From an uncultured Gammaproteobacteria bacterium (lineage in GTDB: Bacteria; Patescibacteriota; Patescibacteriia; UBA11705; JABHMO01): 64,000 bases of DNA. The translations under genes and the position numbers were made by a program. The notes below the pieces were generated by a model. The model was given only the letters and a program-made list of their open reading frames with translations. It was not told the origin of the DNA and ran no database searches. Shown here piece by piece: positions 3,579-60,516 of this stretch (the stretch's first letter is position 1; the number at the start of each line of letters is the position of its first letter). Where the stretch lies: positions 7,133 through 71,132 of the forward strand of contig CAZMEQ010000002.1 in NCBI GenBank assembly GCA_964565345.1, written 5' to 3'.

Positions 3579-4379
3579 TTATTTTTCGATTCCCTGCGCT
3601 AATTTTACCCAATCGAAAAGTGATAATTCTTCCGCCCGAACAGACTCTGAATACCCACGCTCAATTAAAAACTCTTGAATTTTCTGAGGACTATACTCTC
3701 TTAAATTATTCCTTAATTTTTTCCGTTTCTGACTAAACCCAGCCTTAACCAGTTCAAAAAATATTTGGGCTGTAACAGAAAACTTGTTTTTGCGGATATT
3801 CTTAAATTCAATAATAGCGCTCTCCACCTTTGGTGCTGGCTTGAAACTATTTTTTTTAACTGTAAAAAGTAGCTTGGGTTCACAATAAAAATGCACCGAT
3901 AAAGACAAAACACTGTTATTCTGGTCTTTATTACAAATTCGCTCTGCCACCTCTTTTTGCAGCATCAATAACATCGAAGTCGGAGCATATTCTCGCTCCA
4001 AATATAACTTTAGAAACTGACTTGATATGTTATAGGGTAAGTTAGCGATGATCCGGTAAGGTTCTCCCTGAAAAAAATCTTTTAGTTGCTCGTCCGAAAC
4101 CTTCAAAACATCATACTCCAACACGCGAACATTACTCCAGCCAGCAGTAGCTAAACCAGAAATTAAGTCACTGTCTTTTTCGACAGCTAAAACTCTTTTT
4201 GCTCGAGTGGCCAATTCTTGAGTCAAAACACCCCGCCCCGGCCCCACCTCCAAAACATTATCTGTTTTTTTGACTTGAGCCACCTCAATAATTTTTCGCA
4301 AGATATTCTTATCAACTAAAAAATTTTGCCCAAGATATTTTTTGGGTTGATGTTTATTGGTTGTTTTTTTTCCATTCAT
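3579..4379 (-). CDS. rsmA: 16S rRNA (adenine1518/1519-N6)-dimethyltransferase KsgA/RsmA
   Basis: LGQNFL near the N-terminus. SAM-binding VLEVGPGRGVLT. NLPYNISS motif. 266 aa. Confidence 0.9.
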   Translation of the reverse strand: MNGKKTTNKHQPKKYLGQNFLVDKNILRKIIEVAQVKKTDNVLEVGPGRGVLTQELATRAKRVLAVEKDSDLISGLATAGWSNVRVLEYDVLKVSDEQLKDFFQGEPYRIIANLPYNISSQFLKLYLEREYAPTSMLLMLQKEVAERICNKDQNNSVLSLSVHFYCEPKLLFTVKKNSFKPAPKVESAIIEFKNIRKNKFSVTAQIFFELVKAGFSQKRKKLRNNLREYSPQKIQEFLIERGYSESVRAEELSLFDWVKLAQGIEK

Positions 4380-8462: not shown

Positions 8463-8768
8463 TCATTTCTTAATTAAATCGAAAACTCCATTATATACAG
8501 CGCCCGAACCAGTAGCTGCATTAAACTCTTGCATCATGTTCTGATATAACTTCATTGTTTCACGCAAATAAGGTACCGCAAAGAAAATTGCAAAAACCAG
8601 TGGAACAATAATTAAAATTAATTTTAATATGTTCATAATATGTTGCATGAAAATGAAACGCTTCACCTTCACCAACATTTTATGCATTTCTTTGGTGTAT
8701 TCGAGATTTTTCTGCAACAACTGCTTAATTTCCTCCTCGTGCATATAGATAATTAACGTACACGGCAA
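8463..8768 (-). CDS. Hypothetical small membrane protein
   Basis: 101-aa ORF with a central hydrophobic helix (ILKLILIIVPLVFAIFFAV). It overlaps the nrdG end by a few codons in the same operon. Confidence 0.4.
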   Translation of the reverse strand: MPCTLIIYMHEEEIKQLLQKNLEYTKEMHKMLVKVKRFIFMQHIMNILKLILIIVPLVFAIFFAVPYLRETMKLYQNMMQEFNAATGSGAVYNGVFDLIKK

Positions 8769-9439
8769 ACTTTAAACCAATCTTTAAATGTTTGCATGAT
8801 CTCGTTTAATTGTTTTTTGGTATAAGTCATCTTACTCAAAAATTCTGGGTCAACTAAAGCGGCCGCTGGACGAAATTGTTGTAAAAAATACTTGTCAGCG
8901 CCTCTAATTTGCCGCGCCATGGCTAAAATGTCTTTTTCGGGATGCAAAGCCGGTAAAACCGTAGAACGGAATTCATACGGAATCTTCCCCTCCTTAATAA
9001 TTAAAACACTTTCTTTTACTTTCTCCAAGTCCGAAGGTCGCACCACAATTCGATCATATTTCTTCCAGGGCGCCTTAATATCCATAGCAATATAATCAAT
9101 TAGGCCCTTATTGATCAACCTTTTTATAATAGAGGGACGATGGCCGTTTGTATCCAATTTAACTGCATAACCCAAATGTTTTACTCTTTTGATAAAATCA
9201 ACCAAGTCACTTTGCAAGGTTGGCTCTCCGCCGGTAATACAAACACCATCAACCAAATCTTTACGACTTTTTAAAAAATCAAAAATAGTTTCTTCGGGAA
9301 TAACTTTAGCTATTCCTTTTACTATTTCCGGATTATGACAAAAAGAGCAGCGATAATTGCATCCAATAGTGAAAATGGTCGCTGCTATTTTTCCCGGGTA
9401 ATCAACCAAAGTTGTTTTTTGTAATCCGCCGATAAGCAT
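8753..9439 (-). CDS. nrdG: Anaerobic ribonucleoside-triphosphate reductase activating protein (radical SAM)
   Basis: CNYRCSFCHN (CxxxCxxC) radical-SAM cluster motif. GGEPTLQ. Directly downstream of nrdD. Confidence 0.85.
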   Translation of the reverse strand: MLIGGLQKTTLVDYPGKIAATIFTIGCNYRCSFCHNPEIVKGIAKVIPEETIFDFLKSRKDLVDGVCITGGEPTLQSDLVDFIKRVKHLGYAVKLDTNGHRPSIIKRLINKGLIDYIAMDIKAPWKKYDRIVVRPSDLEKVKESVLIIKEGKIPYEFRSTVLPALHPEKDILAMARQIRGADKYFLQQFRPAAALVDPEFLSKMTYTKKQLNEIMQTFKDWFKVCRVR

Positions 9440-9472
9440 ATATTCGATCGCCTGGGGCGATGGCCAAAAGAA

Positions 9473-9667
9473 CTATTTTAAAGCTCGATCATATGTTTTT
9501 CTATCACCGAATTCCTCTCTTTTACCCTTATTCCAACGGTGAATTGGACTTAAATAGCCCACGACTCGAGAATATACTTCACACTTTTGACGCTCCATTT
9601 TTTGTGCAGTCATATTTTCTAGTAACCAGATGCTAGTAACAAGTAACCAACCAACCCAGTTACTCAT
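9473..9667 (-). CDS. nrdD: Detached C-terminal glycyl-radical domain of NrdD (RVVGY motif), in a different frame from the nrdD body
   Basis: SRVVGYLSPIHRWNKGKREEFGDRKTY matches the NrdD C-terminal glycyl-radical signature RVCGYLGSP...NAGKQEEV...R recalled for E. coli NrdD. The upstream part of this ORF (MSNWVGWLLVTSIWLLE) is a read-through of the GTAAC repeat element. The likely start is the internal Met (MTAQKMERQKCEV). Confidence 0.6.
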   Translation of the reverse strand: MSNWVGWLLVTSIWLLENMTAQKMERQKCEVYSRVVGYLSPIHRWNKGKREEFGDRKTYDRALK

Positions 9668-9700
9668 TACTCATTACCCGTTACTTATTATTTATTTTTA
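9600..9700. repeat. Short GTAAC/GTTAC-rich palindromic repeat element (copy A), inserted between the nrdD body and the glycyl-radical domain
   Basis: Minus-strand reading agtaacgggtaatgagtaatgagtaactgggttggttggttacttgttactagcatctggttactag. It aligns with the 60446-60516 copy: agtaacgagtaat, GGTTACT(G/T)GTTACT and CTGGTTACTA. Confidence 0.55.
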
Positions 9701-9701
9701 T

Positions 9702-11768
9702 TTAATTTAATATCTGTTTTTTGACGCTTCGAACGGCTTCGTCTGTATACCCCATTTCTTCATCACAATAAGGACAATACTCGTGTTCACCTTCTATATA
9801 ACCGTGCACAGGGCAGACACTAAAGGTGGGCGTAATAGTAAAATATGGTAAGCGAAAATTTTCGGCGATTTTTTTGACTAGAGCCTTAGTGCTTTCGGCA
9901 GAAGGCATCCGCTCTCCCACAAAACCATGAAGAACCGTCCCGCCTGTATAACGCGTTTGTAAATCGTCTTGCAAGCGTAGGGCTTCAAAAATATCGTCCG
10001 TATAACCAACAGGCAACTGTGTTGAATTAGTATAATACGGCGCAGCTTCACGTTCCTTAACAGCAGGCTCATTGGCCACAACAATATCCGGAAATTTTTC
10101 TTTATCCAAGCGCGCAAAACGATAGGCTGTTCCCTCGGCTGGAGTTGCCTCTAGGTTAAAAAGTTCATTTGTTTCATTTTGATAATCCATGCAACGTTCA
10201 CGCATAAAATCAAGAACTTCACGCGCGAACTTGTGGCCTTCTGGCTCCGAAATTGGCACTTTCAAAAGATTAAGGCAAGCCTCATTCATGCCATTTAAAC
10301 CAATGGTATTAAAATGATTTTTCCAATATTCACCGAAACGTTCTTTTATAGTATTCAAATAAAAACGAGAATATGGATAAAGACCGCCTTCAGTAAAACG
10401 CTCTAACGCGTTACGCTTAATTTTTAAACTTGTTTTAGCTAAATCCATCAAGACGCCTAATCGTTGTAAAAACTCTTCTTTGTTTTTTGATAGATAACCC
10501 AAACGCGCCATATTTACAGTGACCACACCAATTGAACCAGTCAATGGATTAGCGCCAAATAAACCACCGCCACGTCGTCTTAATTCACGATTGTCTAAAC
10601 GCAAGCGGCAACACATACTGCGCGCATCTTCTGGGCTCATGTCGCTGTTTACAAAGTTGGAAAAATAAGGAATGCCATATTTAGCAGTCATTTCCATTAT
10701 TTTATTAATAATGGGGGCCTCCCAATCCCAATTTTTGGTAACATTATATGTAGGTATTGGCCAACTTAAAACACGGCCTTTTCTATCCCCCTCTGTCATA
10801 ACTTCTATAAAAGCCGTGTTGAACATATCCATTTCTTTTTGGAATTCGCCGTAAGTTTCTTTCTGTGGTTCACCGCCACGAATAACAGCCTCCTTAGCTA
10901 AATTTGATGGTACAAATAAATCCAAGGTGACATTGGTAAAGGGCGTTTGAAAACCGACTCTAGTTGGAACGTTAATGTTAAACAAAAACATTTGGACCTG
11001 CTGTTTAACTTCGTCGTAGGTTAAATTGTCATAGCGGATGAAAGGCGCAACATAAGTATCTAAACTAGAAACCGCCTGAGCACCGGCCGCCTCGCCCTGT
11101 AAAGTATAGAAAAAATTAACCAGTTGACTTAAAGCAGTTGTAAAATGTTTAGGCGGTTTACTTTCAACTTTGCCTCGCACACCACCAAAGCCACGCAATA
11201 AAATATCTTTAAAATCCCATCCACAACAATATGGAGCTAAAAGCTGAAGATCGTGTATATGGAAATCACCACTGACATGTGCTTCACGAATGTCTGGTGA
11301 ATAAACCTTGTTTAACCAATAATTCGTACTAATACTAGAAGCCACATAGTTATTTAACCCTTGCAGTGAATAATCCATGTTGCTGTTTTCTTTTACTTTC
11401 CAATCGAGTTGGCTCAAATAGCTTTCCATGAGTTCATCAGAATTGATCATGCTTTGAATGTCTCGCATCTTGGAGTGCTGATCACGATAAACAATATACG
11501 CTTTGGCAACTTTTATTAACCTTTCTTCGATTAAAACTTCTTCAACTAAATCCTGAATTTCTTCGACCGCTGGGATAGAACGCTCATGAAATTTTTTATT
11601 CAAAAGTTCAACCACGCGATCAGACAAACGATCTGCGCGTTCTTGATCGGGTTCACCGACTGCGCGCATGGATTTAAAAATAGCTTGACCAATTTTTTCT
11701 TGTTCAAAGTCAACAATACGATCGTCGCGCTTTCGAATCTGAATAATTTTATTTGCTGTATAAACCAT
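9702..11768 (-). CDS. nrdD: Anaerobic ribonucleoside-triphosphate reductase, catalytic body ending after the Zn-ribbon Cys motifs
   Basis: N-terminal ATP-cone-like segment. Large class III RNR body. C-terminal CPVH...CPYC zinc-ribbon ligands. A stop follows directly after, so the glycyl-radical motif is absent from this ORF. Confidence 0.85.
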   Translation of the reverse strand: MVYTANKIIQIRKRDDRIVDFEQEKIGQAIFKSMRAVGEPDQERADRLSDRVVELLNKKFHERSIPAVEEIQDLVEEVLIEERLIKVAKAYIVYRDQHSKMRDIQSMINSDELMESYLSQLDWKVKENSNMDYSLQGLNNYVASSISTNYWLNKVYSPDIREAHVSGDFHIHDLQLLAPYCCGWDFKDILLRGFGGVRGKVESKPPKHFTTALSQLVNFFYTLQGEAAGAQAVSSLDTYVAPFIRYDNLTYDEVKQQVQMFLFNINVPTRVGFQTPFTNVTLDLFVPSNLAKEAVIRGGEPQKETYGEFQKEMDMFNTAFIEVMTEGDRKGRVLSWPIPTYNVTKNWDWEAPIINKIMEMTAKYGIPYFSNFVNSDMSPEDARSMCCRLRLDNRELRRRGGGLFGANPLTGSIGVVTVNMARLGYLSKNKEEFLQRLGVLMDLAKTSLKIKRNALERFTEGGLYPYSRFYLNTIKERFGEYWKNHFNTIGLNGMNEACLNLLKVPISEPEGHKFAREVLDFMRERCMDYQNETNELFNLEATPAEGTAYRFARLDKEKFPDIVVANEPAVKEREAAPYYTNSTQLPVGYTDDIFEALRLQDDLQTRYTGGTVLHGFVGERMPSAESTKALVKKIAENFRLPYFTITPTFSVCPVHGYIEGEHEYCPYCDEEMGYTDEAVRSVKKQILN

Positions 11769-11999
11769 AGTTTTTCTGATTTATTTATCCCCCCTAAATT
11801 TAATTAACTGACACAGGGACTAAAAAAATAGCCCCTAAAAAATCTTGCTTTGCAGCGAAATTCTTGTCTCTATTGTACCTTATTTTGAGGGACACAAGCA
11901 ACTTCCAAATTTTATATTTTCAAACCACTAAAATTATTAAAAATTATGTGTCGACAAACATGTTTTTTGCAATAAAAATTTTTACTGTGGATAAGTAAA

Positions 12000-12041
12000 A
12001 AAACACGGTGGGGAACAAAATTTTTTGTTCCCCACCGCGAG
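12000..12041 (-). terminator. Rho-independent terminator downstream of ftsZ
   Basis: Perfect inverted repeat ggtggggaacaaaa/ttttgttccccacc followed, on the minus strand, by a run of T. Confidence 0.6.
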
Positions 12042-12084
12042 GCATATACTTGTAGTCAGTAGCTCCAAAGGAAGGAGCGTAGGA

Positions 12085-13356
12085 CTACATCATCTTTCTT
12101 CTTATAAAAGCTGGAATTTCTAAATCCTCATCATCGCTAGCTGAGGCCGTTCCAGGCTGAACGACCATATCTTCTGGCCGTATCTTGTCTGGATCTTCTG
12201 GTGGTTGAGGAGCCAAAGTGCTTTGTTCTAATTTTTTAGCGTCAAAGTCCAGGCGTGGTTCACGTTTTTCGGGCGCAGTAGCAGAACTTAAACTGCTAGC
12301 CTGGCTAGCTGGAGCAGCAGGCGCCTCCTTTTTAATCGGAGCAAAATAATTTGGAGTTGATGGTTGCATAGCATTAACGCGAAGCAAATGACTTTGTACC
12401 CCGGGTTGATCAAATCCCGTTGCCACCACCGTTATCTTAATTCTATCCTTTAAATTTTCATCGACTACTGCGCCGAAGATAATACGAGCATCACTGTCAA
12501 CTGATTCAGTTATAGTTTTCGCAGCCTCGCTCACTTCGTACATTGTTAGATCTGGTCCACCGGTAATTGTAAATAAAATGCCTTTTGCACCTTCAATGGA
12601 CACCTCTAATAATGGACTGGCAATAGCGGCCTTAGCGGCTTCAATGGCACGATTGTCCCCTTGAGCTTCGCCCATACCCATTAGGGCTGAGCCACTATTT
12701 TCCATAATTGTTTTAACATCAGCAAAGTCCACGTTAATCAAACCAGGCAAAGTGATAAGCTCAGAGATTCCTTGAACACCTTGGCGTAAAACTTCATCAA
12801 CAACACCAAAAGCTTCAATTAAAGGTGTTTTTTTATCAATAATTTGCCAAATTCTATCATTAGGAATAGTAATCAAGGTGTCAACCTTAGTAGCCAACTC
12901 TTTTAAGCCTTCTTCGGCAATACGTTTACGTGGACCACCTTCAAATGAAAAAGGTTTGGTAACTACTGCAATCGTTAAAGCCCCCATCTCTTTGGCAATT
13001 TCGGCGACCTTAGGACCAGCTCCAGTTCCCGTACCACCACCAGAGCCATAAGTAATAAAAACCATATCCGCCCCTTTTAAAATTTCGCGGATTTCATTCT
13101 GAGCCTCCTCCGCAGCCTTACGCCCCACCGCAGGATTCATACCTGCGCCCAAACCACGAGTTGTGCTTTTGCCAATATGAATTCTTTCGGGCGCTAAATT
13201 AGACTGTAAAGCCTGTAAATCTGTATTAAGCGAAATGAACTCAACGCCCTTAATCTTGGCCTGAATCATTCGGTTGATAGCAGAATTACCGCCACCGCCG
13301 ACACCGACGACTTTAATTTTGGCATAAGTTTGTATCTCTGGTTTGACTTCTGGCAT
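12085..13356 (-). CDS. ftsZ: Cell division GTPase FtsZ
   Basis: [13 protein letters not shown] and the tubulin signature [13 protein letters not shown]-terminal Pro/Ala-rich tail. Confidence 0.95.
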
Positions 13357-17754: not shown

Positions 17755-20700
17755 TTAGTAATTTAACTCATCTTCATCTGGTGGTGGAGGCGGTGGAAGC
17801 GTAGTGAACTTAGACATTAAATTCTTGAGCTTTGTTTCTAGTTCTGCTGTACTCCCCTGCATCCAAATTCCTTGATGATTTATATCATTTATACAAACAG
17901 AAGGTTCCGTGGTTGGCGCAATACAAACATTATTAACACAAGCATTAGAACAACTTGTTGAACTTACACAAGAAGCGCAATCAGTATTCGCCGTACACGC
18001 CTGTCCAGCACACAGGCCATGGTAACGATACCAAAAGTTAAAATTACTGACTCCTAACGCGCCTGTTTTAATATAAATAAAGTGTATCGGTATTCCTCTT
18101 GCATTAGCAGCTGTAATTGTCGCCGCTCTACTTTCGGGATTATAGGTATCATCAGCATCAGTGATAACAATGTAAACAGTTTGATCATAATCGACAGACG
18201 CTCCTGCTTTTGTCATCTTAGTATCATACACATTTAATGCATCCATAAAAACATTATCTATTCTCAAGGCCATATACGCATTCCCATCATAGATGTAAGG
18301 TGAACTACACACTGGGGCAGCACCACTACAAGTTCCCGAAGAACAAACGTTAGAAGAACATTGGTTGGCTTGTGTACAATAATTATACACACATCTTCCC
18401 GCCCCACCACAATTATAAGTTGCGTTACATGTTGCTATGTCTTGCGTTTTAACGCAGTTCTCCCAACCATTTGCACAATCCAACCAACCCAAGAAATGGT
18501 CAGCCTGACCGGCAGGAAAATATGCCCTTCTGGCATCTTCCGTCGGACTAGTTTTTGATGTCCCCAAGACGAAATAGGCATTATTGCCCATAACGTCACG
18601 GATTCCATCAATATGTGTGCAACCTGGGGCACCAGGAATACAACCAGCCGGAGTATCTATTCCATTAACAATTGAAAGAATTAAATCTTGATGAGCCATT
18701 TCTGGATCATGATCTTGCCATCTCATACTGCCGCTCGTATCAACAAAAAAGGCAAAAAGAACTTTTTTAGTTTCTTTATCATCATACTCACTTGAACAAG
18801 CTTTGTCACAAGTTGCCTCATTTGAACCATCTAGTTTACAGTAATCAATGTCGCCATCGCCGTCGTTATCCTGTCCGTCATTACATTGAGCTGGATAAAC
18901 CTCTGACTTGTGTGTCGACTTTTGTACACCATTCTCTTGGCAGCTATAATCTTTTTCTAACCAATTTACTGGCTGACCAGCGGCTTTATCGGCCAAGCAC
19001 TGTTGTTTTGTTTTCCCAATACCATTAATACAACAACCATCCCAATCACAACGCCCATCACCGTCATTATCAAGTCCATCTTTACAGTGATAAGGGTAAT
19101 CTTCTGTTTCGTCGCTAGAACTCGAGCAACCTTCATCATTTGGATAGTCGATTTTGCCATTTTTATCATTATCAATTCCATCCATACACTCGGGAGCGTC
19201 ACCTGGAGTCTCTGGAATTTCTTCTGGATCCTGCTTTATAGCATCCCAACCCACATTTGAAGTTTCTATGAGTGGAACATATTTATAATTTAACTGTGGT
19301 TGTTCGTAATAAACGCGTAACCGGTATTTAGTATAATCAAGATCATTTACTTCGTAAGTATAGGTTAAATTCTTCCCATAATCTTTATCAGTCTTATCCA
19401 ATATGGAATAATATCCATACAATGAATCGAATGTTTGAGTAGAACTGTTATAACAAGCTCTATTATCATAAACATTAGAACATTCAACACAGGACATCCC
19501 CGGAATAGCACATTGTTCGTCCGAACCACAGGCCAACGGATTAGAATAAACATCGGTACCGCATAAAACTGGCTTTGAAATATTATCACAAATACAATTA
19601 GTTTCTTGCTCCTGGCAGGCCGTTGTGGTTCCACTCAAGAAGCACTGTGGCTGTGGTGGGACATTATACAAAGCATTAATTGGATCTACCGGCATGTCGA
19701 AACCAATAGCCTTGGACAACTCATTTTTCCAGGAATCCCAAACGCTGTTGGAGAAGTGTCGTTGGAGAGTTCCAGATTCAAGTTGTGGCACATAACCGTT
19801 ATTTTGGGCTTTATAAACTTTTAGATATTCGTGCATCAACACAAAATCTTGTAAACGCTTTGTATCTCTAATTACCTTAAGTTTGTTAACATTTTCAGCA
19901 TTCAAAACATTCATGTTGAATTTTAAGAACTCAACCATTTGCCCAAAGATGTTTTGTGTGGCCGGATTAGAATTTTGTGAATAACTTAGAAGATAAATGT
20001 TGTTGTAAACATTGTTACCATTAACATTCGCGGCTGAAACATAAATTGTTCGTCCATCTTGAGTCCCGGCATAACAAAATTCACCAAAGCTGTCATACAA
20101 ACAATCGGATTTAGTTTCGGGCACAGAAGCCGCTGGATTTGGTGCGTACCGCTTATACCACAAACTCGGTGGCAACGCTTCTGGATTTTCGTATATGCGC
20201 AATGAGATTGCGTCTGGCACCATGTCGTTAGTACTCGGATAGTCCATATCATCCTTGCGGACAAAGAAATATTGGGCAAACAAAGCGGGGCTTTCCCACC
20301 CATCATTTGCCGAGGTGCATTTATGATCTTTAGTATCAATTAACCCGTTGCCATCATCGTCAACACCATTGCTACATTGATTTTCGACGTCGACATTCAA
20401 TTCTTGCCAACCTGAATTATCGCCATAGAAAATGCCTTTTTGTTTGGCGATATCTGTTATATTGTGGTGTTTAAATTTGAAACTTCCGCCATCTGGCAAA
20501 CATTGTGAAGTTATATTTACACAAGTACAACCTGGTTGATTCTTAACACAAGAAACCGGAGTACAATATTCAGCCGAATAATCAGCTGTACACTTGAAGG
20601 CGCCAATACCGTTGTTGGAATTAGTATCAGTATTAAAGGTCCAAGCAACGGCGAGACCTGTTTCTTCGTCAGTCTTTATAGCACTTGGTGTTTTTTCCCC

Positions 20701-23700
20701 ATGGAAAACTCTAAAATCATCAACATAACCACCAAAAGAGACTAAAGGAACGGTTGTTTTGCCTAAGCCACCAACATAGAGTTTGTCGTACATGCTAGGG
20801 GTGGCTATCACATCTAGCTTTTCGCTAGTACAAACGCAACCCGGAGTTCCACTATCGCAAATTGTTCCACCAGCTGTTTTACAATCTAAATTATCCCGTG
20901 GCCAAACAAACATAGACGCTGTTTCTTGCTCTGAAACATCTGCTTTTCCGTTAATCGATAAAATGGCGGATTTAGAATCCTTATTATAAGACAAAACTAT
21001 CTGATTAAAACCATTATTTAATAAACCAGCAGCATCGCGAATACCGCGATAAATAATGTTATTGCCATATTTAATCTTAAAGACAACTGATCGCTTAATA
21101 TTTTCGTCAGTACAGTTACAGGCAGACGGCTGTTTAGAGCCGTTTAACACCTCAAACCAACAAACTGGATCAACCGGCGTAGCACACCAACGACGCACAC
21201 CCAACTGAACATGATCTTGATTTGGGACAGAGGCTATATCTGTTGATAAATTTTTATAAAATAGACGGACATATCTGTCTTGTGGTAAATCATCGTTATA
21301 AACCCAAGCTGAAATGGTCCAAGATTCTTTGGCTGTTTCGCTAGCGCCGTCTCTATTTAAGAAGTCTAAGTTATCATTAGCGCCAGACACGACATAATCA
21401 TAATTACGATCAAAATAAACACCAAAGCGTGGTTTAGGATCAATCTCCGTGAACTCACCAGACATCAAACCAACAAGAGGTAAATCGTCGCTTAAAATTT
21501 TATCTTCACCAAAATCACGACAATAGAATAAACCAGCATTGAATTCTTTTTCAACTAAATAGCTTGGTTTTAATTGGCCATTGTTGGTTGTTTCAAGTCG
21601 TAAGTCAAATTTTTTACGAGTGGGTTGCCCGTCGACATATTGATACTCAGCCGGGATAGCCCGTCCATAACTATTATAAACATCGCCAAACCACGGGTTG
21701 TCGCAAATAAAGACTTTTATATTACCAAAGCCCGTAAACTTTGCACCTATCTGATTAAAATTCCCTTGGTCTTTTGCGCAAACACATGTTGCCCCACCAG
21801 CAACACATGGAGCACCAGTATCTTCATCAGTGCACAGTTGAGCGACAGAATCTTCGGTGATTGTTGCCGTAGCTTTAATTTGTCCCTGACCATTTTTAGT
21901 TTGAGTTGTAATAACGGCAGCATAAGCATTTGGATTTATTGTAGCAAGGGCTGTGTCTGTTGATTCCCAAGCCCAATTCCAACTATAAACACCTGGGACA
22001 GGGAAAATATTTTGTGCGCCACTACGTGGATAAGCATAATAGTTAAACTCTTGCTTTGACTGCATAACAAACAAATCACCAGGAGTTACAGCCACATTAT
22101 CTAAACGGCAGAGCTCAGATCCAGTGGTGAATGTGATTTTTTTAGGTAAATCAGTAAAACCAACATTACATTTATTCTTTAAATTTCTGAATAAAATTTT
22201 ATAGGTTGTATTAGGCAAAAGAAGTTCCGCCGGGATCCCCCTCATTTCGGTCCCATTACCAGTCACCTTTATATCGCTTGTCATTTCTGGACCACGGCAA
22301 TGTTTTAATGGACCAGCTAGACCTATCTTGAAAAGTAAATTTCTAACAAATTCAATAACCTTGTTATATGTTTTAACGAACCAGTTTTTACTAGAATTAG
22401 ATACAAACTCGTCGATTTCCCCAGATGATAATTCCCCATTGGCGCAAACTTCAGCATCATAGTAAAACAACATGCCACTCTTGCGTTCGCAGCCAACAAC
22501 CTTTGTTGCCCCGTCGCACTTGCTCATATCTGCCTTTCCGTCTGGCATGAGCTGTTCGCCTCCATCGGTACAAATACAACTGTCGCCGCCCTTTATCTCT
22601 CCCTTTACCGTTGAATATAAAACTATAATTGAATTACGACAAACATCCTGAGCACCGTTCGATGGCACCGAATACGAACTCCCTCCAAACAACTCGGTTT
22701 CAGCGGAACAAGAAGCAGTTACGGCCTCGTCATACACTGATTTAGGAACACGCAAAGCAATGTCCGTGTCCCCAGTCTTAGTTTGTGGCTGACCTTGAAT
22801 AGTTTCTAAAGTTTGAGCAATAATTTTTTTAGTCAAACTATAAGTCACTGGTGGTTTGTCAGGATTTTTAGAATCAATATCTGGCGTTAATCTTAATAAA
22901 ACGCTATAAACATTGAAGGTATTTTTTTCGGTATTAATAGTTGCTTGTTGATATGGGCTCCCCTTAGTACCTGTCCCCAAAGCCTCACAACCACTGTCTT
23001 CTCCTAATTCCTTAAGGCCATTACCACACAAAGAACCATATTCACTATCTGAACCTATGTTAGTACATTTATTGGTACACCAAGCTGGAAATTCGCAAAC
23101 ACAACCTGCTTCACCCACAGCACAAGCTTGTTGCATTTTGCCACCGGCAGGACAAGCTGTTACTTCGGCGCAAAAGCATTGGTTCCCCACTTTAGTACAA
23201 CCAGAATCCCCCGAATCACACTTAGCCATATTCTGAACCTGCGTTGGACATGTTACCTCTTTGAAACAGGCCGTTTTTTCACATTCCTCCATACTTAAAC
23301 CCGCACCCGTTAAGTCCTCAACAATGCTATTGCCACAGCAATTATTTTCGCCCGGATTAACGCAAGATGGAAAACCAGTTATCAAACATTTTTCATTACA
23401 TAAAGGATTGGCTGAATCGCATTCCTCGCCAGCATCGACAGTCCCATTACCGCAAATAGGAAGACCAGCTACAAATTTAACCTGAGCGCCCTCATTTAAA
23501 CATTTATTGTTTACCCCATCACCGGCTTTATTGTTGCCATCATCAACGTCTTCCCCTGGTTCTGGGACTTTATTCCCACAAGTATAGCCATCGGCTGTAC
23601 CAGTGTTCAAACAACCAGCTGAACAAGCTTTACTCTTAGATACCAAGACACAATTATCTTCGGGCTCTGCTGTGGTTGGGTCACATGCCTCTTTATCTTT

Positions 23701-26700
23701 ATCTAAATATTCTGCACCCAAATCACACTCTTCGTTACCATTTTTAACACCATTGCCACAGCAAGCTGAACTTCCAGACAATTCAGCGGGCGTGCAAGCC
23801 GCAAAATTATCCCAGAGACAAGTTTCAATGTTACAATTGGCGATTGGTGGCTCACACTCTTCGCCAGTTGAAATTGTTCCATCACCGCAAACAGCTCTAT
23901 ATTTTACACTTCCTTTCAACAAACAATTACTATTACAAGTTGTAGAAACCTGAGTATTATAAACATTATTAGTTATGGTCGCGAGTGGGGCTCCATCAGT
24001 TGCGCCATTATCGGGGTCATTTGTAGACCAGTCCCAGTCATAGTTGAGTGGGTTTAATAATTGGCCATTGGGCGAACACTTGTCTGGGGCACTGGCTGGT
24101 TGCACTGCGTAATTTATGGTCTCGCCTGGAACGCCAGCCACATAACCACCAGGAGTTACGCCAACTGAGTTAATGACGCACTGGTTAGGATCATTTTTTG
24201 TTTTAAAGACCCAGCTAAAACTATTAAATGCTGCCCCGGGGATAACACCCGTTGGATCATGGTGATAATTTAAGTCAATTAATTTTACCCCACTAATACT
24301 TTCCATATCTCCAGAAATTACAACGCGGTGGTAACGATTAGGCAACAAATTCATGTTATTTACCAAATCGATTGTTAACAAATTTTGACCGAAAGAAACG
24401 CCAGCAGCCGGCGCATACAAATAATTTAAATTCAAGGTAACACCAGGCAAAGCAGAAATTACGGTACACTCTTCAGTATCACAACTATAAACTTTTACAT
24501 TGTTTTGATTTTCCACCACAGACTCCTTCATCTTGGTGTTAAAGTTAACCCCCATTTGAGCGTTAATACAGGCTTCTTTACACTTTGGATAATAACTTGT
24601 AACACGTGGTTCACTAAAATTAATTTCTAAATCAGCTCCCTTCTCGTATAATAAGCTATCAGCTGGCACCACGGCGTTAGCCAATATCTGGACTAAATTA
24701 CTTTCGGTTGTTTCTAAATCAATAGTCGCATTACATTCACACCCCTCACTAAATTGAGAACAACCGCCAGGTTGGCAAACCAACTTATCCGTACGTGTAG
24801 CATAAACGCCAATGTCATTACGTCTTTCGGTTGCAGCTGTACAATATGGCAAAGCACCAGGAATCGGCTCAACTAAGCAGGCATAACCCTTAGCCTCGGC
24901 TTTTTGCGCATCTGCTGCATCTGGAACTGTCCAAACCCACGGCTTATCAATTAAACTTATTTCTTGACACTGGTACATGCCAGTAACCCAGTATTTTTGA
25001 ATTTGTTGTACTGAAGTTATTTTACCTTTAGAAGGCGTCATTAAAAAATTATCAGGGACACAGTCAGTGGCTTTAGTTTTAAAATTCCAAACATAGCTTT
25101 GCGTCATAGTTTTACCTGGAACACCTGGTGCAAAACTATTTGCCGCCACACCACCTGGGCCGCCAACTATTTCTACTTGATACCAAGAATTTGCAAATAA
25201 ATTATACTTATTGCCTGATTTTTGAATTATATTTGGATAGGCATTAGTTCCAGGAGCGCCACCACCAGCATAGCTGGCAAACAAAGAAAATGAAGTCATG
25301 TTTTCATTAGAAGCGGCACAAACACACCCCTCTGTTCCAGGCTCACACTTAGCGCCCAACTTTGTACAAACAATACTGGCCGGCTGAGTACCGACATCAC
25401 TGGGAGCGATATTAGATAATTGACTGGAAAGACAATTAGGTGCGGTACAAGCAGTAAAGTCACAAGGAGTCTCGCTATCCGAAGCAAGACAACGTCGAAT
25501 AATAACATTGCCATTCAAGCTTGCTTCGTTAATTAACATGTTAAAGGTTGCTGAAATCAACCCATTAGGACAAGCTAATTTATCCTCTTTTTTAGGCGAA
25601 GGCGATTGTCTATAACCAGCATCAGTAGCAAAATCAGTCACAAAACAATTTCGTTCAATAACAGCTGGAATTTTAGGGATTACTCCAGTACTCATAACCC
25701 AAGCATACTCAGACTCATGGGTTACAATAGTAGAGCCACAAACATCTTCTTTGGTTGTTTTCGTTCCTTTGTTTGTACAAACTCCATTAGAACAACAAAA
25801 TTGATCGGCCTTACAAGATTCGTCATTTTTACAAGCACCAACCTTAAATTCAATAGCATTGCTTGCAACTGAACAATCTCCTCCCTCCAAACGAACACCG
25901 CCCGTAATTGCCTCGGCCGGAACGCGTGCCTTTTCTATAGTTTCAGCGCCCCAAACAATATCCCCCGCTTCATTAACCGGAATACGGTTGTCCTTATCTT
26001 TTACAAAAGTTAAATTATATAAATCTTTAGTGCCAAAATTTTCACCTGTGACTGTAAATTCTGTAGCAGCCGGTCCATTGCTTGGAGATAAACCGCACAA
26101 ACCCGGACCCGGAGCATTAGTGTTTACCACAAAGAAACGGTTATTACTTGGTAAACTCTGGCTTGTAATAACCTGGACCCAATAATTACCAGGACTTAAA
26201 CTCATGGCCTGATCGCCCTGTAACTTATTTGCTTCGGGCACCTTAACTATAATCTCGGTATCAGACCAGCTTCCAGCACCACAAGCAAAATCAGCAATAA
26301 AAGCAGGCAAAGGATTTCCATCCTCATCAGTTGCCTCTACAAATCCACCCTCGCCATTGTCCTCCAAAAGTTTTAAAATTACTTGACCCTGGGCGTCGCC
26401 AAAATTACTGCCAGCAATACTGATCATTTGTTTTACCGGAGCACTTTCTACACAAGTACAATCTGGTGACCCCACGATACAACAACTGTCATCAGCCTTT
26501 TTGCATGTTTTTGGCGTAATTTCAGTGATCGTAGGTAGTGCTCCTGGGTTTCTTACCGTAAAAGAAACAGGATTACTCAAAACATTAAAACAACTACACC
26601 CTGGAGAGCCTTGCTCACAACTTTCAATACAAGATTCAGCGCCAGATTCACAACCGTCTTTAACTTTGGAACAACGCTCCCCCTTACCAACAACAACATC

Positions 26701-48383: not shown

Positions 48384-49418
48384 ATGTCTCTGACCCTCAT
48401 CGGTATCATCGGTCTGTCCGTGATCGCGATGGCCGCCCTGGTGACCATGGTGCTGAAGAAGTGCCTGGTCGTCACCGAGTCGCCCAACCTGACCGTCGTC
48501 GGCGACTGGGGGAAGTCGCCGACCGACATCCTCAACCCGCCCTGGGAATTGATCTTCTACCCCGTCACCCAGGTGATGGGGGTCATCACGACCGAGGTGC
48601 AGCGGTACAACATGCCGCAGTGTACCCTGTCGTGCAGAATGCCCGACCCCAACGGTGGGGCAGGCATCGGGAAGATCAACACGAAGGAGGTTTCGCTCTG
48701 CTACCATTTCTACTTCTGGACCAGCAGCGAAATCCGCCTCCACTCACCTGGCACATCACTTCCCGCCGGCTTCTCGAAACTGATGCAACTGCGTAAGTTC
48801 TTCCAGTTCGTGGGATTCCTGGCCGACGGCAAGGTCGACTTCCCCAGCATGGAAGAGGCCCTGAAGGACAGCCTGCAAGGAGCCTTCTCCCAGATCAGCC
48901 GCACGCTGGAACTGGAAGAGGCCATCAACTTCCCGCAGGACAAGCTGGATGAGATCGCGCACGCACTACAGCAGGAGTTCTGGACCGAGGGCCTGCCCGT
49001 CAAGGTGGTGTCGCTCCAGAGGAATGCCCCGTTCGAACCGGAAGGTGAACTGGGCAAGTCCATCGCCGCACGTGTGGCGGCACTGGCCGCACTACCCACC
49101 AAGGTGGCCGAGGCCGAGAATGCCCGCCGTCTGGCGGTCATCAACGCCAATACCGCCCGTGAGGTGGCTGGCATCGAAGTCGAGACGGCAAAGCTGCAGG
49201 GCGACAAAGAAGTCGTCCGCATCGGCAAGGTGCTCGAGGCTTACCGCCTCGTGGCCCTGCCGCCCGAAGAGCAGGTGCGGCAACTCATGAACCTGGAACA
49301 GCTCCAGGTCTATCGCGAGATGGCCGCAAGCTCGAGTGCCAAAATCATGCTGGTGCCGACCGATGTTCTGTCCGGAATCGGCCGCGCGCTCAGCGCTTTC
49401 ACCGGAGGTCATCCATGA
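48384..49418 (+). CDS. SPFH/band-7 (stomatin/HflC/QmcA-like) membrane protein, GC-rich foreign-looking gene
   Basis: N-terminal TM. EAENARRLAVINANTAREVAGIEVETAKLQGDKEV ... LEQLQVYREMAASSSAKIMLVPTD resembles the Glu/Ala-rich helix and SSS.K..MP ending of QmcA/HflC-type SPFH proteins. GC in nearly every third codon position. Confidence 0.65.
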   Translation: MSLTLIGIIGLSVIAMAALVTMVLKKCLVVTESPNLTVVGDWGKSPTDILNPPWELIFYPVTQVMGVITTEVQRYNMPQCTLSCRMPDPNGGAGIGKINTKEVSLCYHFYFWTSSEIRLHSPGTSLPAGFSKLMQLRKFFQFVGFLADGKVDFPSMEEALKDSLQGAFSQISRTLELEEAINFPQDKLDEIAHALQQEFWTEGLPVKVVSLQRNAPFEPEGELGKSIAARVAALAALPTKVAEAENARRLAVINANTAREVAGIEVETAKLQGDKEVVRIGKVLEAYRLVALPPEEQVRQLMNLEQLQVYREMAASSSAKIMLVPTDVLSGIGRALSAFTGGHP

Positions 49419-60445: not shown

Positions 60446-60516
60446 AGAAAGTAACGAGTAATTAGTAACGAGTAACGAGCTTTACTGGTTACTGGTTACT
60501 GGCCCCTGGTTACTAA
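60446..60516. repeat. Short GTAAC/GTTAC-rich palindromic repeat element (copy B) between aspS and asnS
   Basis: agtaacgagtaattagtaacgagtaacgag ctttactggttactggttactgg cccctggttactaa. The two arms are near reverse complements with an 8-nt periodicity of GTAAC. It matches the copy at 9600-9700. Confidence 0.55.

Follow-up and report, generated by a model that had tools for sequence, protein, structure and literature searches.

A putative two-polypeptide class III ribonucleotide reductase with its glycyl-radical domain encoded by a separate small gene

To our knowledge, class III ribonucleotide reductase (NrdD) has always been described as one chain with a C-terminal radical glycine plus a separate activase, and in all characterised class III enzymes that we know of NrdD ends in a covalently attached glycyl-radical domain. 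This domain must leave the barrel for activation. For pyruvate formate-lyase, GrcA/YfiD and T4 Y06I provide a glycyl-radical domain that is activated and works in trans, and GrcA rescues an enzyme with its own radical domain after oxygen cleavage. T4 nrdD (sunY) carries a group I intron, T4 gene 60 uses translational bypass, and NrdA of phage Aeh1 is split by a homing-endonuclease insertion. The catalytic subunit of a class II reductase, NrdJa/NrdJb, is split between two genes whose products reassemble (PMC9669993). According to a 2026 review, only formate lyases have standalone radical-domain proteins of the GrcA kind (PMC13450708). No description of a split class III reductase was found in the full-text literature that could be searched.

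The nrdD locus and its two reading frames

In the window (the whole stretch of 64,000 nt that was analysed), the nrdD body, a small radical-domain gene and nrdG follow each other in this order, all on the minus strand. The body is an ORF of 688 aa (9702..11768, minus strand; stop TAA at 9704-9702) that ends ...FSVCPVHGYIEGEHEYCPYCDEEMGYTDEAVRSVKKQILN* and contains the ATP-cone, the ten-stranded barrel, the finger-loop cysteines and the zinc ribbon. Pfam NRDD (PF13597) matches it over profile positions 1-530 of 562 with 604 bits (cut-off 26.2), the ATP-cone profile also matches, and NCBIfam NF006126 matches over model positions 3-657 of 684 with 1040.5 bits (cut-off 548). Residues 98-611 of T. 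maritima NrdD (4COI) align to the body. The zinc-ribbon ligands C652, H655, C665 and C668 (C652-x2-H655...C665-x2-C668, here C652-P-V-H655 and C665-P-Y-C668) are invariant across 76 body homologues, and so is the finger-loop motif SMCCRLRLDNRE (SMCCRLRLD) with C386 and C387. By homology, one of these finger-loop cysteines (C386/C387) is the putative site of the thiyl radical.

The initial annotation had described nrdD as split, with the RVVGY glycyl-radical motif in a separate, frame-shifted ORF and the 688-aa ORF stopping just past its zinc ribbon. Both observations are confirmed, the former by the ORFs and profile coordinates and the latter on the minus strand. The RVxGY motif is absent from the body and present only in the separate 46-aa ORF. 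Past the last zinc ligand, the body has a C-terminal tail, DEEMGYTDEAVRSVKKQILN (9705..9764, minus strand), which was delimited with the C-termini of 120 homologues. In this tail 'DEE[MI]GY' is conserved within the clade and the remainder is variable. Past the 4-residue linker, the tail has no counterpart in fused NrdD.

The small glycyl-radical-domain gene, MTAQKMERQKCEVYSRVVGYLSPIHRWNKGKREEFGDRKTYDRALK (46 aa; 9473..9613, minus strand; stop TAG at 9475-9473), is in frame +1 relative to the body, and the encoded C-terminus is ...CEVYSRVVGYLSPIHRWNKGKREEFGDRKTYDRALK*. It matches Pfam NRDD over profile positions 530-562 (E 1.1e-9; 38 bits against the cut-off of 26.2) and NF006126 over model positions 649-682 of 684, and residues 611-645 of 4COI align to it. 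The complementarity of the body and the small ORF to one NrdD profile and one NrdD structure is far beyond chance. Residues 8-42 of the 46 match the NrdD C-terminus, and the candidate radical glycine is G19 (codon 9559-9557). In Pfam, NCBIfam and PHROG the small protein matches NrdD models only; it is not a member of the PFL-type Gly_radical family, and no dedicated PHROG family was found for it.

The longest ORF at this position has 64 aa (9473-9667), and this reading frame had been taken as the small ORF. In the alignment with homologues, the conserved start is instead the internal ATG 9613-9611; the protein then has 46 aa with the N-terminus MTAQKMERQKC..., and gene callers in relatives agree on this start. 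The 18 extra 'codons' ahead of it correspond to the hairpin and are unconserved. It is correct that no obvious SD site precedes the small ORF, but this is uninformative, as only about 2-4 of the 43 window genes have SD-like motifs and A/T-rich leaders are the norm. SD sites are not in use in this genome, and 'aaaatATG' is therefore an ordinary start. Across 18 small-protein homologues, 17 residues are invariant and the start is conserved. The small ORF evolves under strong purifying selection, with a dN/dS of 0.03-0.09 and nearly saturated synonymous sites.

The gene nrdG encodes a radical-SAM activase of 228 aa (8753..9439, minus strand) and begins 33 nt downstream of the small gene. It matches Pfam Radical_SAM and Fer4_12, and in the NCBIfam profile search it matches TIGR02495 NrdG2 with 218.9 bits against a cut-off of 131.15. 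A promoter-like site lies 5' of nrdD (11943..11972, minus strand) and is a possible operon start; it is a weak consensus match (9 of 12 positions), and in the consensus scan promoter-like sites were no more frequent than in shuffled sequence. The sole terminator-like hairpin (12004-12039) is located 3' of ftsZ, upstream of nrdD, and no terminator-like site was found in the spacer between the body and the small gene (9614..9701).

A 4-residue linker connects the last zinc ligand to 'EVYSRVVGY', and this is where the break sits. Placed on an HMM built from the C-termini of fused proteins, 92 of 116 bodies stop at model position 33, and the small proteins begin at position 30. These positions point to a clean fission within this linker, which joins the zinc ribbon to the radical domain, and an origin by duplication and decay was rejected on the same positions. 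The NF006126 coordinates of the body and the small ORF overlap by 8 positions. MAFFT paired the tail 'MGY' of the body with 'VGY' of fused proteins, and it misaligned the small proteins whenever tailed bodies were in the alignment.

A 10-nt direct repeat on either side of the gap, AGCGTCAAAA (9585-9594 and 9719-9728), was considered as a target-site duplication or deletion scar and was rejected as chance; it is absent in relatives. Its copies are spaced 134 nt apart, and therefore a loss between the repeats would not restore the frame.

The spacer and the GTAAC element

The body stop codon and the small-gene ATG are separated by an A/T-rich intercistronic spacer (9614..9701, minus strand). The gap had been estimated at about 100 nt; its length is 88 nt. 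It contains a hairpin of GTAAC/GTTAC heptad repeats (9621..9685, minus strand) with the arrangement (GAGTAAY)n, loop, (CTGGTTA)n, which belongs to the small dispersed palindromic repeats. RNA folding gave a 16-bp central stem and a fold z of -5.05. Only two GTAAC/GTTAC clusters are present in the window, at 9620-9690 and 60450-60515. The second hairpin (60450..60515, plus strand), found by the cluster scan, aligns with the nrdD-spacer copy and is flanked by two class IIb aminoacyl-tRNA synthetase genes, in agreement with the earlier statement that the repeat also occurs between aspS and asnS. The two copies have opposite orientations relative to the flanking genes. Other homologous copies were found in L085/86 and L297, and the four copies show 79% mean column identity. 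Similar heptad hairpins are observed in at least 120 unrelated metagenome contigs.

The Rfam scan of 9300-12100 at E up to 1 gave no match to the spacer. There is an unrelated weak Rfam match at 11970-12044.

Among relatives, the spacers range from 20 nt (L033) to 158 nt and their sequences are unrelated. The split is found without the GTAAC element in L083, L088, L003 and L014. As relatives have unrelated or near-absent spacers, the GTAAC element occupies the spacer and did not create the split. From its sequence and placement, the hairpin is to be classified as a dispersed intergenic repeat that happens to occupy the spacer. At most, it may modulate mRNA stability or the relative expression of both cistrons. 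The element resembles REP, MITE-like palindromes and cyanobacterial STRR heptamers in being short, dispersed and intergenic, in forming a hairpin from tandem heptamers, and in occurring in either orientation. In contrast to those, it has two copies in the 64-kb window, and no transposase or known family was matched.

Distribution of the split and of standalone radical domains

The 120 best body homologues show 67-100% identity and come from Falkow-, Kuenen-, Uhr-, Buchananbacteria and others. Eight of them, 'src'-only entries of doubtful origin, were left out. All of the 112 natural homologues end at the same place without RVVGY, with C-termini of the form 'CPxCDEE[MI]GY' followed by 2-20 residues. 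One entry, P0171, was considered as a natural fused close relative and rejected; its N-terminus is that of P0132 and its C-terminus resembles Desulfobacula. P0171 and the other 'src'-only entries look chimeric and were set aside for that reason. Five independently assembled syntenic relatives (86-94% identity) have the body, the small gene (46-48 aa) and nrdG. The initial annotation had named relatives with a continuous in-frame nrdD as the sign of a sequencing or assembly error. No such gene is seen among the close relatives, and fused forms are found only in distant clades. Sequences from the window's own clade are nearly all from metagenome-assembled genomes, and the cultured examples belong to a sister clade with another gene order. 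The split is carried by isolate genomes too, including L013.

In the cultured Orenia marismortui and Halanaerobium saccharolyticum, and in Synergistales, the gene order is body, nrdG, small gene. These three and the window lineage form one clade in the neighbour-joining tree. Splits at the same linker are placed separately in the tree for Elusimicrobia and for Thermotogae/Acetothermia. In Elusimicrobia both pieces have helical zipper-like tails, and in Thermotogae and Acetothermia the TTG start of the small gene is inside the 3' end of the body gene. The split apparently arose three times or more. In lineages where SD sites are in use, an AGGAGG of its own precedes the small gene, 5-9 nt before the start. 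One Falkowbacteria scaffold has a small gene adjacent to the body and a second copy about 175 kb away.

A word-indexed search favours matches of query-like length, so its 90 short matches are no proof of a standalone family. Because of this length bias, an exhaustive HMMER search of 1.84 billion representatives was run, and the same answer was obtained. The best 150 matches are all standalone, with lengths of 48-131 aa. Among the 144 new proteins of these best 150, 135 begin with M and none has a zinc-ribbon remnant. The standalone NrdD-type radical-domain family includes at least 150 clusters at 50% identity. NrdD fragments of 186 aa on megabase contigs were examined as well and were rejected as an artefact; L090 is a frameshifted long-read assembly.

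Two loci, L035 and L073, have a complete fused NrdD beside an extra standalone zinc-ribbon/radical-domain ORF. Of the 80 viral loci, 69 have an orphan copy of the small gene, among them a contig that also encodes terminase and portal proteins; isolate phage genomes gave two weak matches only. Organisation of this kind is conserved across many bacterial, archaeal and phage sequences.

Interpretation and comparison with known systems

It is very likely that the body and the small protein constitute a functional two-polypeptide class III reductase, in which the radical domain is supplied in trans. A separate radical-domain polypeptide, comparable to GrcA, was among the possibilities raised at the beginning, and it gains support from the shared truncation, the purifying selection and the unlinked copies. 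Translation of the small protein would start at its own ATG (9613), as in the other SD-less genes of this genome. NrdG and S-adenosylmethionine would abstract hydrogen from G19 of the small protein, which would insert non-covalently into the barrel of the body at the seat of the C-terminal domain of fused NrdD. The glycyl radical would generate a thiyl radical on a finger-loop cysteine, starting nucleotide reduction. The short lineage-specific tails on either side of the break probably help the chains associate. A likely consequence, although speculative, would be that the oxygen-labile part is a cheap, replaceable unit of 46 residues, sparing the large body from radical damage. The split could be neutral instead of adaptive.

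The AF2 models were built with an artificial end-to-end fusion of the body and the small protein as input. The fusion model shows the class III fold, with TM 0.71-0.75 to T. maritima and T4 NrdD. The pLDDT of the radical domain was below 50 in run 1 (alignment of bodies only) and 63-83 in run 2 (truncated bodies, fused C-terminal fragments and small proteins). It was about 50 over the tails, and confidence was low for the finger loop. Because it is built from an artificial fusion and has moderate or low confidence at the domain and the finger loop, the model does not demonstrate docking, and run 2 holds no residue-level docking evidence.

The palindrome located exactly between the two ORFs fits a pseudogene, in which GTAAC insertion, or else a sequencing or assembly error, has broken nrdD and the small ORF is a decaying remnant. 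Clearly artefactual frameshifted nrdD genes do exist in long-read assemblies (L025 and L090). Such an origin is nevertheless extremely improbable for this locus, since all 112 natural homologues and the five independent syntenic assemblies share the break, and isolate genomes (the sister clade and L013) have the split too. The relatives without GTAAC (L083, L088, L003 and L014), the spacer of only 20 nt in L033 and the low dN/dS of the small ORF (0.03-0.09) also argue against it; the initial annotation had listed repeat insertion among three possibilities, and these points do not support it. The matching codons around the spacer suggest a different scenario, the restoration of a single NrdD chain by translational bypass, frameshift or excision of a mini-intron placed similarly to the T4 nrdD intron. 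The last body codon, AAT (followed by TAA), is the same as the AAT preceding the small ATG, and with the strong hairpin between them they resemble a take-off/landing pair; an AAT pair is also found in L083, and AAC/AAT in L085. The match is absent in L088 (CAT/AAT) and L003 (AAA/ATT), however, and starts in an 'AAT ATG' context are common among the genes of this genome. The spacers of 20 to 158 nt are unrelated in sequence, no intron or ribozyme family matches in 9300-12100 (Rfam), and the direct repeat AGCGTCAAAA, absent in relatives, would not restore the frame. In the sister clade the whole nrdG gene separates the two pieces, unlinked copies and phage orphans exist, and in other lineages the SD site and the start codon of the small gene are conserved. 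Restoration of a single chain is thus very improbable, and the earlier idea that the repeat is bypassed or removed at the RNA level does not stand, given the absence of any Rfam match, the unconserved spacer and the nrdG gene between the pieces in the sister clade. The remark that the insert is too small for a group I intron holds, with 88 nt and no Rfam intron match.

It is unlikely, too, that the two products do not belong to one enzyme, the body being catalytically dead or having another role, or the small protein serving as an accessory spare part or a regulator of another glycyl-radical enzyme. Standalone radical domains are found beside fused NrdD (L035 and L073) and as orphans on phage contigs, and therefore proteins of this family are not in every case obligately tied to a truncated body. 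Against this scenario, conservation of the body is high (67-94% identity) and extends to the finger-loop cysteines and the zinc ribbon, and the body stays adjacent to nrdG. As far as we know, NrdG acts on the NrdD glycine only. The match of the small protein is specific to the C-terminus of NrdD and not to PFL-type Gly_radical, and synteny of the body, the small gene and nrdG is kept in every close relative.

If the two-polypeptide reductase is functional, the split NrdD extends the in-trans glycyl-radical domain to a second enzyme class. It suits the study of activase access to the glycine and of domain insertion into the barrel, which are long-standing questions, and it suggests a cheap strategy of oxygen-damage repair in small-genome anaerobes. 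It is possible, though we would not call it probable, that the 46-aa protein is one member of a large family, so far unrecognised, whose proteins act as diffusible, replaceable radical subunits of class III reductase. In the window lineage the member would be the sole radical domain. Extra paralogues elsewhere, such as the second Falkowbacteria copy and the additional ORFs of L035 and L073, would be spare parts, and phages would use their orphan copies to re-arm or take over the host NrdD body and raise the dNTP supply in infection. Such an autonomous NrdD-type family would be the class III counterpart of GrcA and T4 Y06I. The orphan viral copies likely represent a new phage auxiliary gene. 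There is a consequence for annotation as well: gene calling often misses the small genes or lists them as 'hypothetical', and truncated bodies carry the label of complete reductases.

The locus shares features with several known systems. As in the T4 nrdD intron and T4 gene 60, the interruption is near a functional region, and the gap has a hairpin and matching AAT codons. In contrast to them, the spacer is 88 nt with no intron fold, the gap is unconserved, and the downstream piece begins at a conserved start codon of its own and is not always linked to the body. As in NrdJa/NrdJb and Aeh1 NrdA, a reductase catalytic subunit is encoded by two genes. Those belong to other classes, and their break divides a part of the barrel or C-terminal redox domains, whereas the break in the window divides off the radical-storing domain; no endonuclease gene is present in the window gap. 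The canonical NrdD/NrdG systems (T4, E. coli, T. maritima 4COI and P. copri 8P23) have the same domain order and an adjacent radical-SAM activase, and the locus in the window differs from them in that the glycyl-radical domain is a separate 46-aa product and both pieces have short extra tails. GrcA/YfiD and Y06I are, like the small protein, small standalone glycyl-radical-domain proteins, presumably activated by the cognate activase, and phage copies exist in both cases. GrcA is PFL-type, whereas the small protein in the window is NrdD-type. A radical domain is already part of the enzyme that GrcA serves. The window body lacks one, and therefore the small protein would be obligatory.

The two genes and the position of the break

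On the minus strand, the region contains ftsA, ftsZ, nrdD, a small ORF, nrdG (the radical-SAM activase gene), a 101-aa ORF, an HtrA-type protease gene and prfB, in this order. The nrdD body (9702-11768, minus strand) encodes 688 aa and its C-terminus reads '...FSVCPVHGYIEGEHEYCPYCDEEMGYTDEAVRSVKKQILN*'. The small ORF (mechanically listed at 9473-9667, minus strand) is in another frame and includes 'CEVYSRVVGYLSPIHRWNKGKREEFGDRKTY'; nrdG is located at 8753-9439 (minus strand). The large and the small ORFs match positions 1-530 and 530-562 of Pfam NRDD (562 positions), positions 3-657 and 649-682 of NCBIfam NF006126 (684 positions), and residues 98-611 and 611-645 of T. maritima NrdD (4COI), respectively. 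The pair covers one NrdD model exactly. This rules out chance and confirms the claim of the initial annotation that nrdD is split, with the glycyl-radical motif (RVVGY) in a separate ORF of another frame.

The initiator methionine is conserved across 18 aligned homologous small proteins and corresponds to an internal ATG in the window (9613-9611). The protein starting there is 46 aa long (MTAQKMERQKCEVYSRVVGYLSPIHRWNKGKREEFGDRKTYDRALK), and gene callers agree, with genes of 46-48 aa at this position in relatives. The 18 "codons" upstream of this ATG are a hairpin read in frame and show no conservation. It had been pointed out that 'aaaatATG' has no Shine-Dalgarno (SD) sequence. The lack of one is no cause for concern: SD sequences are essentially absent from the genome, and starts, those of nrdD and nrdG included, typically follow A/T-rich leaders. 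An SD-like motif of any kind precedes only ~2-4 of the 43 window genes, most clearly as AGGAGG at 48384 and 53488. In Thermotogae and Acetothermia (L037, L039, L045, and L058, ~3900-3990), the 3' end of the body gene contains AAGGAGG and, 8 nt past it, a TTG start. These overlapping cistrons are probably a translationally coupled pair.

The break was placed on an HMM built from 109 C-termini of fused, one-chain NrdD (consensus ...CPSHGYLKGEQEKCEKCEEETEVYSRVVGYLRPV...). Of 116 bodies, 92 stop at HMM position 33, and 60 of 90 small proteins start at position 30; thus, the chain is cleanly divided within the 4 residues that link the last zinc ligand to the first radical-domain strand. Lineage-specific extensions flank the break: in the window, the body bears 'GYTDEAVRSVKKQILN' and the small protein 'MTAQKME'. 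In Elusimicrobia (L046, L071, and L078), whose split form is set apart from the window's clade by the tree, the body tail 'RMQELERQVRLLEDQLYSK' and the small-protein head 'TAEERKIVENKISELKKEM' look like amphipathic helices, possibly forming a zipper. Such paired tails are the pattern expected if they hold the two chains together. Thermotogae and Acetothermia, split at the same linker, are also apart from the window's clade. The neighbour-joining tree, the only one available, suggests at least three independent fissions at this site (the window's clade, Elusimicrobia, and Thermotogae/Acetothermia).

Overlapping palindromes (…ATGTGTCGACAAACATGT…) are present upstream of nrdD, between the ftsZ terminator and nrdD (11939-11982, minus strand). 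Because NrdR is encoded just upstream of nrdD in relatives such as L171, they could be NrdR boxes. A very long ORF (3780 aa, 17755-29097, minus strand) is located ~6 kb from the nrdD operon.

Error, pseudogene or removal of the spacer

The break is neither an error nor the mark of a pseudogene. The 120 best body homologues (67-100% identity) include 112 natural sequences, which come from Falkowbacteria, Kuenenbacteria, Uhrbacteria, Buchananbacteria and other Patescibacteria; every one of these ends past the zinc ribbon with 'CPxCDEE[MI]GY' and a short variable tail, lacking RVVGY. The continuous in-frame nrdD sought in close relatives was found in none of them. The body, the small gene and nrdG are syntenic in five independently assembled relatives whose bodies are 86-94% identical, all of them split, and dN/dS for the 33-codon core of the small gene is 0.03-0.09 among syntenic relatives, with synonymous sites near saturation. 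The pseudogene reading offered initially is therefore not borne out. Left out of the 112 are entries with the source 'src' only (P0149, P0153-P0158, and P0171), whose N-terminal half is identical to that of P0132 while their C-terminal parts differ; they look chimeric or constructed and unfit as natural homologues. P0171, the sole 'fused' match, has a Desulfobacula-like C-terminus and was rejected. In two long-read metagenome assemblies (L025 and L090), nrdD is in several frameshifted pieces, most likely sequencing artefacts; not every 'split' nrdD in databases is genuine.

The initial annotation also considered that the repeat is removed or bypassed at the RNA level. The body's last sense codon, AAT (followed by TAA), is also the codon preceding the small-gene ATG, a likeness to the T4 gene 60 bypass; however, neither L088 nor L003 has the matched codons, and starts in this genome often read 'AAT ATG'. 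The spacer itself is conserved neither in length nor in sequence and matches no Rfam family. It contains the GTAAC hairpin in the window, in L085/86 and in L297; in L083 it is a different sequence, rich in G, that does not fold significantly; unrelated palindromes rich in A/T occur in L088, L003, and L014 and none in L007; in L033 the spacer is only 20 nt long. In cultured Orenia marismortui, the body (677 aa) comes first, nrdG second and the small gene (48 aa) last. The same order is observed in Halanaerobium saccharolyticum, other Halanaerobiales, Bacillota and Synergistales, and these lineages and the window's Patescibacteria lineage form one clade in the neighbour-joining tree of bodies. 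One scaffold of Falkowbacteria (GCA_001778235.1, MFGJ01000007.1) carries two paralogous small genes (L171:5128-5343 and L005:3986-4147), one of 50 aa adjacent to the body and one of 48 aa ~175 kb off, after mraZ-rsmH. In SD-using lineages, the small gene has its own AGGAGG 5-9 nt ahead of its start. Removal or bypass is thus rejected as well. Of the three readings offered initially, a separate polypeptide is the right one.

The GTAAC element is a ~65-nt hairpin of tandem heptamers, (GAGTAAY)n, a loop and (CTGGTTA)n, with many G·U pairs. A homologous copy (60450-60515), opposite in orientation relative to its flanking genes, is present between two class IIb aminoacyl-tRNA synthetase genes. The repeat was thus correctly reported in both places, but it is incidental to the split, as relatives (L083, L088, L003, L014, and L033) are split without it. 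Similar heptad hairpins occur in at least 120 unrelated metagenome contigs (L177-L296) of widely different G+C content, which suggests that simple palindromic repeats of this class are widespread; they recall the STRR elements of cyanobacteria. The element is of the REP or STRR kind, a repeat dispersed among intergenic regions, and has settled in an already existing spacer. No T-tract was found 3' of the hairpin, and an influence on the stability of the mRNA or the ratio of the cistrons would be hypothetical.

Distribution of split and orphan forms

A word-indexed protein search with the small protein returned short proteins only. Such a search favours matches of query-like length; therefore, the test was repeated by exhaustive HMMER search against 1.84 billion cluster representatives, which gave 4816 matches at E ≤ 1e-3 (1772 at E ≤ 1e-10). 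The best 150 of the 4816 are all 48-131 aa long. Among these, 144 are new; 135 begin with M and none has the 'C..HGY' zinc-ribbon remnant. The best 80 loci, with one genome per species, include ~42 fused forms, ~17 with the order body-small-nrdG and 12 with body-nrdG-small; in 6-8, the small gene is an orphan or unlinked.

In L035 (Paceibacterota) and L073 (Bdellovibrionales), a complete fused NrdD is followed by an extra 90-110-aa ORF (L035:3842-4117; ~228 nt past nrdD in L073) with its own CxxC...CxxC ribbon and radical domain. This is the expected look of a true class III "spare part". Longer standalone forms (~90-140 aa, ribbon and radical domain) are also seen in L040, L076, L030, L141, L155, L162, and L168.

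Of 80 IMG/VR loci, 69 carry the small gene as an orphan; stretches of up to 20 kb around it encode neither an NrdD body nor NrdG. The orphan genes in predicted viral contigs (L151, L298-L372) encode 41-147 aa. One (L151:4001-4114, contig 3300017613_002246) is beside large terminase and portal protein genes, and another (L100) is accompanied by dNMP kinase and M23 peptidase. The orphan gene may be a new auxiliary gene of phages, comparable to T4 Y06I for PFL. Coiled-coil-headed small proteins related to the Elusimicrobia form are found in viral contigs L118, L140, L145, L161, and L167.

A fourth gene order, with the small gene immediately upstream of the body, is seen in L300:3226-6419, where the body also seems to be interrupted, perhaps by an intein, as the tblastn match has a gap. 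Large gaps are also seen in L016, L018, L021, L028, L033, and L074, and bodies of the same family in P0115, P0122, P0143, and P0188 are ~1015 aa, ~330 aa longer. P0188 matches LAGLIDADG_3 (PF14528). Barrel inteins are the probable explanation, with no connection to the C-terminal split.

Proposed mechanism and comparison with known systems

Two conserved, separately initiated genes together make one NrdD, adjoining the activase gene. From established class III reductase chemistry and the GrcA/Y06I precedent, NrdG would make the radical on G19 of the small protein, free or loosely bound; the barrel of the body would take up the small protein; and the radical would be handed to the finger-loop cysteine C386/C387 of the body. 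C386/C387 is invariant among homologues. Modelled by AF2 as one chain, joined end to end, the two pieces adopt the class III fold, with TM of 0.71-0.75 to NrdD of T. maritima and of T4; pLDDT is 80-82 for the zinc ribbon, 63-83 for the radical domain, ~50 for the tails and below 50 for the finger loop. The model is compatible with this mechanism, short of proof. We hypothesize that repair is cheap when the oxygen-labile part is confined to a chain of 46 residues; if true, this would account for the extra paralogues and the phage-borne copies.

The split nrdD is genuine and no artefact; it represents a known enzyme in a new and widespread form. A split class III reductase is not described in the full-text literature searched, whose coverage is incomplete, so that earlier notice (e.g., RNRdb curation) is possible; Pfam, NCBIfam and PHROGs hold no model for the small protein. 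The split form has testable consequences for radical-enzyme activation and phage-host biology. Phage Aeh1 reportedly has a split class I reductase. A split class II reductase, NrdJa/b, is known (PMC9669993), and a June 2026 review describes formate lyases as the sole glycyl-radical enzymes with identified spare-part proteins (PMC13450708). The enzyme in the window probably works as canonical NrdD/NrdG does, but lacks one hallmark, a radical domain that is part of the same chain. The likeness to GrcA-PFL would be the use of a radical domain in trans; the small protein is outside the GrcA family because its sequence is of the NrdD type and its partner body has no radical domain of its own.
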